From Eledone cirrhosa (lineage: Eukaryota), in the NCBI GenBank assembly GCA_964016885.1, contig OZ024755.1:41354001-41418000 (forward strand): a DNA stretch of 64,000 bases. The letters are read 5' to 3'. Below, piece by piece: positions 13,714-16,732 of this stretch. A program made the translations under genes and the position numbers. The notes beneath the pieces were generated by a model that saw only the letters and a program-made list of their open reading frames with translations, searched no databases and was not told where the DNA came from. Each line of letters opens with the position of its first letter. Position 1 is the stretch's first letter.

Positions 13714-14069
13714 TCATCATCATCATCATCATCAACGTTTAACGTCCGTGTTCCACGCTTGCATGGGTTTGGACGGGGGTAGTCCCACTTGAGGCAAGAG
13801 TGATTGTCTTGCTCGCATAGGACTGTCTAGCAGGTTTTCTACAGTTGGATGCCCTTCCTAACACCAACCACATTTACAGTGTGGGTCTGGGAGGTTTTTA
13901 CCGTGTTGCCTACACGGCCACATCACAGCGTGGACTGTGTGTTTTTTTGTCGTGACACCTACACGATCTCATTTGTTTCGGCCTCGATGGCGCGGCACCA
14001 ACATAACTTTACATAGAACGGGGTGGTGTGGATGGGGGTGGGGGTGGTGGTGGTGGGACGGGGTGTATT
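13714..14069 (-). mobile_element. RTE 3' UTR and (GAT)n tail; distal half of a split copy
   Basis: Near-identical reverse complement of 10791-11140. Confidence 0.9.
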
Positions 14070-14567
14070 ATATATGTATATATATATATATATATATATA
14101 TATATATATATATATATATATGTATATATATATATATATATATATGTATATATATATATATATATATATGTATATATATATATATATGTATATATATATA
14201 TATATATATATATGTATATATATATGTATATGTATATATGTATGTATATATATATATGATATATATATATATATATATATATATATATATATATATATGT
14301 ATATATATATGTATATGTATATATGTATGTATATATATATATATGTATATATATATATATATGTATATATATATATATATATATGTATATATATATATAT
14401 ATATATGTATATATATATATATATATATATATGTATATATATATGTATGTATATATATATATAATATATATATATATATATATGTATATATATATATATA
14501 TATATATATATATATATATATATATATATATATGTATATATATATATATATATATATATATATATAT
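14070..14567. repeat. (TA)n array at the 3' end of the Penelope-like element
   Basis: Direct reading; G-interspersed on +. Confidence 0.95.
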
Positions 14568-16255
14568 TAGGTATAGGATTATCCAAGATGTAGTGATGGT
14601 TAATTACTACACTGGATATGGTTGACGTACGGTAAGAGATTACTCTACGAGTTATGGAAGAATTGTTCAAGAAACTAAGTTCCTGATCCTTCAGTATTCC
14701 GGAGTGTATATAAAGAATGAATAATAACAGGTAGACATCATAAAAAGGTATTTTATTCCGTGTGCTTACAAGTGTTTCCACGGTGGTACTACAACCTAGT
14801 TATGCTATGTGCAAATTTACAAGTATTTGCAGAACTCAAATATCCAATGCTGTGACCACTGTTTCCTCAGAGCAGAATGGTAAATATACAATGTAAAAAC
14901 CCTTAAGTGGGTTTGTTGGGGAAGATAGAGTGGAACAGGAAGAGAGAAAAGTAGGGAAGAAGGAGAGAGAAGGAAAGATATGCAGGGGTTGGAGAAGTAG
15001 GAGAGAGTGGCTTGTAGATATCTTAATCAAAATGTTATGGTAGGGGTTTTATTAGTTACTTTTGGAGAGATGGTAGATAGTTGAGGTCGGAATTATTTAT
15101 TGCCCCAGAGGGCAGGTTCATAAATGTTGAAAGGGAGGTAGGTCAAAGGTGAGAGAGCGAGAGTGTAATGGATCTAGAGAGAGATATATAGGTAGAGAGG
15201 GGACAGATAAATATGTGTGGTGAGTGAACTTTTGGTTTTGTAGTAGTATTCTAGGAGTTGTACTGAGTTACCATGTATAGTGATAAGCAGTGTATTGTCT
15301 TGTAGTGTGGGGGGGAAGAGAAGGTTGTTAGCTAGAAAGAGGTGTTGTAGTTACGGGTTCGAATGTTAAGTTATTTTATAGTGAGAGAATTTAGCTTTTA
15401 GTTTGTGGTTGCAGTATAATGATCGTTCAATTCTATCGTTAAGTAGTTTGTTTTTGGATTTTAGTATGTAAAATAGCTCAAGGTTACATAACCTGCAGTA
15501 CTTCAAACCATTCCGATATGCATTTGCGCTGGAAAGTATATCCCATTTTAAGGTGAACTGTTGGTTGTGTTCATGGAGTTGCCAGGTCTTGTTGGCGAGC
15601 GTGGTCACAAAACGGTGATTCTGATGTTTGATTGAGAATCGATGACGGTACCAGCGAGATTTAAACGATGTGGTGGTAGATCCGATATAATACCATTTCT
15701 GGTCGTCTGATTCAACCGTGCATTGGTAAACAATGTTGGACTTTAGGCATTCATTCTGCAATGGACATCTTTCAGGTAGATGGCAGTTACATGCTTTGTT
15801 GTAGGTAGCGGGTATACCATGGATAGGTTGTGATAGCGGTACAGGTGGGTTGTGCAATACCTGTCTCCCATTTAGTGGTTGGGAGGCAGATATTGCGTTC
15901 TGCCCATCTGTTACTAAAATGTTTTGTTTAGTAGAGTTGTTCAATTGCCTTAAGTTAAGTTTTTTTATGTATGCTTCAAGGTTTGGTGCCGTGGAGTATG
16001 ATAGTCTAATAGTTTTGGAGTTCAGAATTTTGCTGTACTTATGGGAACTAGGGAAGTGTTTATTGATTAATTTAAAGAATGAAAGAGATAGTTTTGTACT
16101 AATCGAGGCATTAAAAATAGGATTATACCAGATATACTTTCTACAACGTGATTTATTTGGTGGTGATCTTCTATTATTAGTATGTCTGGTAGTACAGTGT
16201 GTGTGTGCTTGTGTTTTAGTCCCCCGGTTACGTATACCTTGATTACGTGTAGAGC
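14568..16255 (-). mobile_element. Penelope-like element, 5'-truncated (thumb/linker + GIY-YIG, 3' UTR, hammerhead)
   Basis: Frame open ~16255-15366: IWYNPIFN...LINKHFPSSHKYSKILN..LSYSTAPN...CNCHLPERCPLQNEC..IVYQC...YYIGSTTTSFKSRWYRH...CRLCNLE...CNH. Confidence 0.88.
14763..14874 (-). ncRNA. Hammerhead ribozyme candidate with extended helix II
   Basis: Minus strand: TGCT-CTGAGGA-[AACAGTGGT ~67 nt ACCACCGTG]-GAAA-CACTTG-TA-AGCA. Confidence 0.65.
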
Positions 16256-16265
16256 TATATATATA

Positions 16266-16732
16266 TGTATTTTGTTAGAGATGCCTACTGGCTGGAGTAG
16301 GTTTTACTATATATTTAGGTAAGGCGGGTCTTCTCTGTTACTGAGTACCGCCAAAGGTCTCGGTCCAGTGACATTGTCTTGGAGAGGTGTAAGTGTGTGA
16401 TGTCGGAGTTTATCAGCTCGTCCCAGGTTTTTCTAGGTCTGCCTATTCCGTGACTACCGTCTATCTTTATTGCCCTGCACTTTGTAATACAGCTATCGAC
16501 TTTCATGCGCATCACGTGTCCATACCAAAGTAGCCTTCTCTCGAGTAAACAACATCTGATCCCTCTTATCTCTAATTTTTTCCTTAGTTCGTTTATGCTT
16601 TGCCGTTCACGTATATTACTGTTACACATCCAGCGGAGCATGCAAGCTTCGTTCCTCTCTAGTCTGCGTATATCCTCTGCACACAATGCCCAGGTCTCAC
16701 TGCCATGCAGCATTGCTGTTCGTATGCAGGCA
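16266..16732 (-). mobile_element. RTE ORF2 C-terminus and start of 3' UTR; proximal half of the split copy
   Basis: [30 protein letters not shown]...TEKTRLT*, near-identical to 10330-10796. Confidence 0.92.

Follow-up and report, generated by a model that had tools for sequence, protein, structure and literature searches.

Do Penelope-like elements (PLEs) associated with microsatellites find their repeats or found them? The question is normally untestable, as the target-site duplications of such insertions vanish in the repeat. Here we consider one locus that bears on it, in a stretch of 64,000 nt from Eledone cirrhosa (assembly GCA_964016885.1, contig OZ024755.1, positions 41,354,001 to 41,418,000 of the forward strand; this whole stretch is called the window below, and positions are counted from its first letter). 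A 5'-truncated minus-strand PLE and a (TA)n array lie there together between two copies of the hexamer TGTATT, inside the 3' untranslated region (UTR) of an RTE-type long interspersed nuclear element (LINE). A preliminary description of the locus held that the array had been absent from the site beforehand and was therefore synthesized, carried or seeded by the PLE. We find that the site is a real and informative single case, that this first reading was over-reaching, and that a model in which one PLE insertion left short TA seeds, expanded later by local processes, is testable; the latter is the reading that we tentatively prefer, granting it slightly less than an even chance.

The duplicated hexamer, the split minus-strand RTE copy and the TA-free site in a paralogous RTE copy all agree in position and sequence with what was first described (Table 1). 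Between the two hexamers come, in this order, the TA array, the PLE and the short stub TATATATATA (16256-16265). The left half of the RTE copy matches the paralog at 10791-11152 and the right half at 10329-10796 (345/359 and 445/468 bases identical, respectively), and the two matches overlap by exactly six bases, TGTATT, which the paralog carries once and with no TA run, that is, as an empty site. Insertion by target-primed reverse transcription is recognized by a direct duplication of a target that is single in the empty site, and this is what we observe. Given this empty site, the TA run postdates the interrupted RTE copy. To this extent the earlier claim of prior absence stands; its second part, that the PLE made the array, does not follow from it, as the PLE, being of a TA-preferring clade, could have hit a TA run that was by then already in place. 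The PLE is the sole endonuclease-coding element within the duplication. The duplication outside TA is the unusual part of the locus, a PLE within TA being expected for the Hydra clade, discussed below. The interrupted element, which we take to be an RTE copy from its domain layout and tail (the paralog has an RVT_1 hit), is itself bounded by TA: its (GAT)n tail runs into a further TA array at 13627-13713, and its 5' half is 5'-truncated against a TA array at 16734.

TGTAT is also the commonest interruption of the arrays, with 202 occurrences in 9,964 array bases, and hence part of the duplication could be mimicry. We simulated 200,000 insertions of random array slices into the empty site without duplication; 0.3% of them nevertheless looked like a 6-bp duplication, and 2.4% like one of 5 bp. 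We consider the duplication to be probably real, though not certain. The frequency of TGTAT, and the fact that the array length is known from the assembly alone, leave room for a reading with no true duplication, the second copy being mimicked by the array, or with an array inflated by assembly; given the simulated frequencies, and with both RTE halves resuming exactly at the hexamer, we regard this as very improbable.

The length of the array was at first ascribed to the PLE, by synthesis or by transport. Yet a pattern of runs, 11-5-7-3, is duplicated inside the array, and only 3 of 5000 shuffles reach such a repeat. In ten other arrays tested, an internal repeat comprises 1-5 runs in seven cases and 10 and 17 runs in the two longest, and is lacking in one. 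Run patterns common to the focal array and any other array of the window do not exceed three runs, so no local donor was found. Between 467 and 17380 the arrays are interrupted by G on the plus strand, and between 17598 and 23687 by C on the plus strand, independently of the strand of the adjoining element; PLE pieces at 12487-12959 and 21137-21350, 98-99% identical and in the same orientation, adjoin arrays of opposite G/C polarity. Because of the internal duplication and the regional polarity of interruptions, we conclude that the focal array grew in place and that its length is no evidence of synthesis by the reverse transcriptase (RT). The other arguments of the preliminary description fare no better: TA does not lie mainly at PLE 3' ends, the longer array being at the 3' side in four of the eight elements tallied in the region, and the role of an engine for the (TA)n content of the genome is unsupported, since RTE copies, an L2/CR1-like LINE, a fragment of this kind and an RTE-type piece have TA at both ends too. 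Thus neither array length, nor 3' position, nor genome-wide abundance points to the RT of the PLE.

These observations bear directly on the reading that the PLE delivered most of the 500 bp at once, either by 3' transduction from a read-through transcript or by telomerase-like reiterative synthesis. A long array does stand at the 3' end of the element within the duplication, the RTs of PLEs are sister to telomerase, and PLEs capture flanking or unrelated DNA; with the internal duplication, the regional polarity, the 3' tally and TA runs of only about 8-60 bp beside related elements in another animal, we nevertheless think delivery in one event highly unlikely, and the structure of the array speaks against telomerase-like synthesis as the source of its bulk. 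We also considered, and rejected, the birth of the array by slippage from a bare TGTAT seed, which leaves the duplicated hexamer and the phase break unexplained.

The switch of polarity is a regional feature in its own right, the interruptions being almost all G over 17 kb and almost all C over the next 6 kb. Strand-biased mutation, exchange between neighbouring arrays, an inversion near 17470-17597 and a sequencing effect are candidate causes.

The PLE copy has lost the catalytic core of the RT and consists of the C-terminal 296 codons and the 3' UTR. In the 296-residue frame, PF01541 (GIY-YIG) is found at residues 181-226 with an E-value of 4e-4 and 21.1 bits, just below the cut-off of 22.6. 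The linker reads CNCHLPERC, and its cysteines C126, C128 and C134 are invariant across 50 aligned sequences; no cysteine pair (no CCHH) is read between GIY and YIG in the translation; CxxC and CxH motifs surround conserved E and N, with C224, C227 and E230 invariant, and C252 and H254 nearly so, in the same alignment. A search of cluster representatives with the protein yielded 5441 relatives, the long ones with an RT upstream. Out of 151 inspected, 25 are at least 600 aa long, with YRDD in all of these and DKT in 19; in ten long relatives, Pfam recognized no RT family. Each of the word-index protein searches returned a single distant match. A hammerhead predicted in the 3' UTR has the same layout as in the Hydra table of PMC8557442; Rfam gave no match, hammerhead included, on the 3' UTR and only TA noise on positions 1-25000 of the window, and the fold z-score of the whole hammerhead stretch is 0.5. 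TA stands on both sides of the copy, as in Hydra-clade insertions. By the definition in section 11 of PMC8557442, the motifs, domain and layout agree with the Hydra clade. The hammerhead flanks are not those given for Hydra-1_oBim, so the element is another, new family of that known clade.

Four sequencing runs, covering three organisms, were mapped on 14558-16730 (runs X3 and X8, with shares of 0.06 and 0.00, were left out). All 30 bins are covered in each of the four, which makes the family multi-copy, and read depth rises towards the 3' end of the PLE. Three contigs of run X4 match the PLE up to 16258 and then continue in sequence of other elements; hence the TAT at 16256-16258 is common to the PLE and the TA run, and seven bases are extra. 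The order of TA, PLE and TA first described therefore holds, with the array at 498 bp for the estimated 500, whereas the terminal TA of about ten bases shrinks to seven. No loose ends at 14568 or 16266, and neither TA-only alleles nor flanks of other copies, are seen among the matches listed for the four runs, which stand beside 827 further rows where RTE reads dominate. The exact 23-base pattern from the PLE end has no occurrence in metagenome stretches, and no relatives of the PLE were found in viral contigs.

Relatives in other animals were collected with an alignment of eight relatives as query, giving 78 metagenome loci (out of 600 candidates, 380 were confirmed and the best 80 retained) plus 14 loci that represent host DNA within bacterial genomes. 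Three of these genomes supplied 34 regions. Of 26 natural ends, from five families, 24 adjoin a TA array, one an imperfect run of 6-8 bases and one no TA at all; 14 further rows read through the end. The count excludes family F6 of genome bin G001, four ends of which stand beside ATAC/TATG-type repeats rather than TA. Animal-type Hydra PLE sequence, probably host DNA, is present in bacterial genome bins G001 (49 matches) and G002-G005.

Copies of Hydra type stop at either of two ends, which lie some 60-90 bases from each other. Inverted ends are common, both in PLEs of the window (3897-6051, 12487-12959 and 21137-21350) and in many copies in G001. In the read-through copies a T/A segment lies past the shorter end, of eight bases in family F1 (three rows), four in F4 and three in F3; in other PLEs of the window it has eight bases (at 12579) and 14 bases (at 3993). 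The segment is followed, approximately 7-8 bases from the end, by a motif of the form GCTC or ACTC ... GAGCACT or GAGTGCT. Of 56 distinct motif hits that have a hammerhead upstream, 33 show an alternating run of at least four in the 20 bases before the motif, compared to 5 of 56 in a control window, and T stands at position -8 in 44 of 68 motif hits. We regard the motif as a candidate signal for RT binding or for the start of reverse transcription. Being sharp and tied to a motif inside the element, the ends argue that reverse transcription may start within the element RNA rather than in the flank, and thus argue against the copying of a long flanking array in a single event. From the read-through ends of related families, the RNA would bear a few UA units at the priming point. 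Dozens of Hydra-type families carry the motif, as GCTC(C/T)...GAGCACT, on the downstream side of their hammerhead, often paired at about 60 bases, and in the window it is also found at 3979, 12571 and 21222.

For the focal family itself, an internal TATATA (14707-14712) is followed by ACTCC, the second half of the clade motif being unmatched. Read depth drops beyond this bin in all four runs, and one X4 contig departs at 14707, which suggests that the shorter terminus of the family is here. The segment after it is TATATACA, and its ATACA is complementary to the target TGTAT; the focal copy uses the terminus at 14568 and not this one.

We favour seeding because everything that was inserted lies within a single duplication, which contains no element other than the PLE. 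A Hydra-clade PLE would have cut the RTE 3' UTR on both strands, with six bases between the nicks, where the sequence offered no more TA than TAT. The end of the bottom strand (TGTAT/T) would prime complementary DNA (cDNA) on a short UA-rich segment of the RNA, lying about 7-8 bases before the conserved GCUC...GAGCACU motif, and the RT may slip a few times at priming, comparably to the LINE UnaL2 on its tail repeat. The end of the top strand would prime on the same kind of segment (twin priming, normally leaving inverted ends such as those of the other PLEs in the window), and the second cDNA would join the first after 7-10 bases via TAT, leaving a few TA units at each junction. The seed at the 3' side would later grow to 500 bp by ordinary slippage and unequal exchange, in the same regional process as the neighbouring arrays. 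The nicking, priming and slippage are steps that we infer; the 5' junction, with a three-base microhomology and seven bases of TA, and the T/A segments of related families are observed, and the target reads TGT-ATT at the junction, cf. the cut of a Poseidon PLE at 5'-ATT-3'.

A reading nearly as likely, to which we also give somewhat less than an even chance, involves two steps: a TA run entered the RTE copy with the 6-bp duplication, and a Hydra-clade PLE then hit it near one end, its own duplication being hidden in the repeat. The TA run might have come from a LINE or PLE transcript with a TA tail, by reverse transcription that was aborted, or from break repair copying a neighbouring array via TGTAT microhomology. 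The Hydra clade prefers (TA)n, and TA on both sides together with a three-base 5' microhomology is the outcome of insertion into TA. Two-sided blocks in other animals have TA on both sides in 10 cases out of 13 and an outside duplication of at least five bases in none (12 of the 13 were also checked by eye); however, this test is weak, as many of the flanks belong to ends of other elements, and the duplication of the window itself escaped the routine, whose array walk ended too soon there. The preliminary description had held that PLE copies generally lacking duplications outside TA, and sitting in TA already present in empty alleles, would speak against it, and the first half of this is what the 13 blocks show, at low power. 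Other donors of TA exist, RTE-type, L2/CR1-like and other pieces in 463-23753 being TA-ended as well, short stubs beside long arrays are common in the region (10 bp at 8719, 26 bp at 6052), and the focal array shares G-on-plus polarity with its neighbours. On the other hand, two events are needed at one site, and the window offers no example of the first step: self-comparison of the window revealed no TA-only array interrupting another repeat, and the sole array known to have been born inside another element holds a PLE.

Several further observations weigh, like the 13 blocks, against seeding by a single PLE insertion. The clean case of a repeat at a site whose empty copy lacks TA is one (n=1); at four junctions in G001, TA stands where the flank paralog has none, but each of these is one-sided and readable as a truncated element in TA. 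Insertion into TA is the norm of the Hydra clade, in 26 of 27 families (PMC8557442 supplement), and with one of the 26 natural ends opening into no TA, an end outside an array need not add any. An RNA segment merely pairing with the nicked target would add nothing; a seed able to expand requires slippage, which is undescribed for PLEs in the available parts of the literature. The T/A segment of family F2 is a single T, an alternating run of at least six precedes the motif in only 6 of 56 hits, and the RNA segment behind the used terminus 14568 did not turn up. Covariation as support for a hairpin at the end motif was considered and rejected, the outer pair being G-C in 56 of 68 hits, A-C in six and A-T in one.

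A more general scheme would have Hydra PLEs both target and found (TA)n: their telomerase-related RT would start on an internal UA segment 7-8 bases from the motif, slip at sites offering only TAT and add TA at both nicks, and the new arrays would become the next targets, in a self-feeding cycle that would underlie TA-rich invertebrate genomes. We consider this scheme unlikely as it stands. Whatever the reading, a duplication outside TA combined with an empty paralog is a concrete signature that can be counted genome-wide, and the end motif with its short T/A segment offers a specific place for priming and slippage. If seeding is true, PLEs make their own landing pads and help to explain the origin of new TA arrays; if it is false, the site documents the birth of a TA run by insertion, followed by targeting.

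Table 1. Features of the interrupted RTE copy, the inserted DNA and the empty site (positions in the window).
Feature	Position	Strand	Basis
Empty site in the paralogous RTE copy (8729-11138): hexamer once, TA run absent	10791..10796	+	Comparison with paralog
3' half of RTE-type LINE: rest of 3' UTR and (GAT)n tail	13714..14069	-	345/359 match to paralog
Probable target-site duplication TGTATT, PLE 3' side	14064..14069	+	Comparison with paralog; chance 0.3-2.4%
(TA)n array, 498 bp, with 25 G and 0 C interruptions on the plus strand and an internal duplication	14070..14567	.	Sequence; shuffles
5'-truncated PLE, fitting the Hydra clade: end of thumb/linker, GIY-YIG endonuclease, 3' UTR with pseudo-long terminal repeat (pLTR)	14568..16258	-	Domain, motifs, relatives
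Element-internal TATATA, putative shorter terminus of the focal family	14707..14712	-	Sequence, read depth, one X4 contig
Predicted type I hammerhead motif: CUGAGGA core, 85-nt stem II region, GAAAC, 4-bp stem I	14763..14874	-	Motif and pairing check
Open frame, 296 aa: CxCX5C linker, GIY-YIG core without CCHH, CxxC and CxH motifs	15366..16256	-	Pfam, translation
5' junction: TAT (16256-16258), common to the PLE and the TA run, and seven extra alternating bases (16259-16265)	16256..16265	.	X4 contigs
Probable target-site duplication TGTATT, PLE 5' side	16266..16271	+	Comparison with paralog
5' half of RTE copy: end of open reading frame, start of 3' UTR	16266..16733	-	445/468 match to paralog

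The window contains further elements of the same type. A second Hydra-type PLE family is present at 3897-6051 (plus strand), with a GIY-YIG frame at 4099-4731, a hammerhead at 5960 and an inverted 5' end, where an 81-bp tail (3897-3978) follows a 14-base TA-rich segment and an ACTC...GAGTGCT motif. The extreme 35 bp of this tail recur at 17381-17415, 100% identical to 3897-3931 and with TA on both sides, that is, as a minimal insertion into an array. A third family is represented by inverted pLTR/tail pieces at 12487-12959 and 21137-21350, with hammerhead cores (12678, 12860). Between TA arrays at 728-1255 lies a near-perfect palindrome of about 450 bp, one arm of which is 75 bases longer; it resembles an inverted pLTR pair, and no hammerhead core was found in it.

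The TA-bounded piece at 13018-13626 (plus strand), related to 47-461 (minus strand), has a C2H2-type frame at its end and runs straight into TA; presumably it is an internally deleted element of RTE type, and it is a possible other donor of TA. At 2923-3896, a 38-bp unit is duplicated in tandem together with its TA array (2923-3388 and 3390-3896). Farther along, a 12-kb array of a 30-bp satellite (408 copies, 94% matches) occupies 48017-60129, and a 20-bp satellite starts at 61318 and extends past the window end at 64000.

We found no published account of PLE-made TA arrays by titles and beginnings of abstracts, a coverage in which subscription journals are mostly missing, and neither such arrays nor the end motif are described in the available parts of PMC8557442, PMC12602865, PMC13282606 and bioRxiv 10.64898/2026.07.22.740005. 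The closest known system is the Hydra clade itself (PMC8557442; e.g., Hydra-1_Obim and Penelope-1_NV), which has the same GIY-YIG domain, CxCX5C linker without CCHH, CxxC/CxH motifs, hammerhead in the 3' repeat and TA on both sides. (TA)n is given as the insertion preference of the 26 families counted above, one of them from octopus with a different hammerhead (PMC8557442 supplement), and duplications are often indiscernible in microsatellite-associated PLEs (PMC8557442, Craig et al. 2021). The focal site differs in having a duplication outside TA and an empty site with no TA run. De novo Chlamys insertions were interpreted as targeting (PMC9977147).

The Poseidon PLE PAc of the green anole cuts 5'-ATT-3', extends both strands and starts reverse transcription at two internal sites of its RNA (PMC11167929). 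Its nick in AT-rich DNA has a counterpart in the one proposed here, and its two internal starts, which define a "tail", resemble the two ends of the Hydra-type families; however, PAc belongs to another clade, its start of reverse transcription is described as not homologous to the cut DNA, and repeat addition is not described in the part of that paper available to us.

PLEs make duplications of 8-10 bp and may hold unrelated sequence inside (PMC3846280). In the PLE capture of Adineta vaga, non-element DNA lies within an 8-bp duplication proven by an empty allele, as at the focal site, but the cargo there is placed between two pLTRs, whereas the focal TA is outside the element ends.

PLE duplications with foreign cargo are thus already known for rotifers, and microsatellite seeding by retroelement tails, for LINEs. 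The tails of snake CR1-L3 seed AATAG microsatellites (PMC6050309), and in the eel UnaL2, template slippage at the start of reverse transcription reiterates the tail repeat (PMC1636434). The likeness to the focal site would lie in a short 3' repeat that is left by a retroelement, reiterated by slippage and expanded later. The LINE cases differ in that the repeat is a fixed 3' tail, whereas the focal TA is also the preferred target of the clade and stands on both sides of the element, its seeding being inferred from one site.

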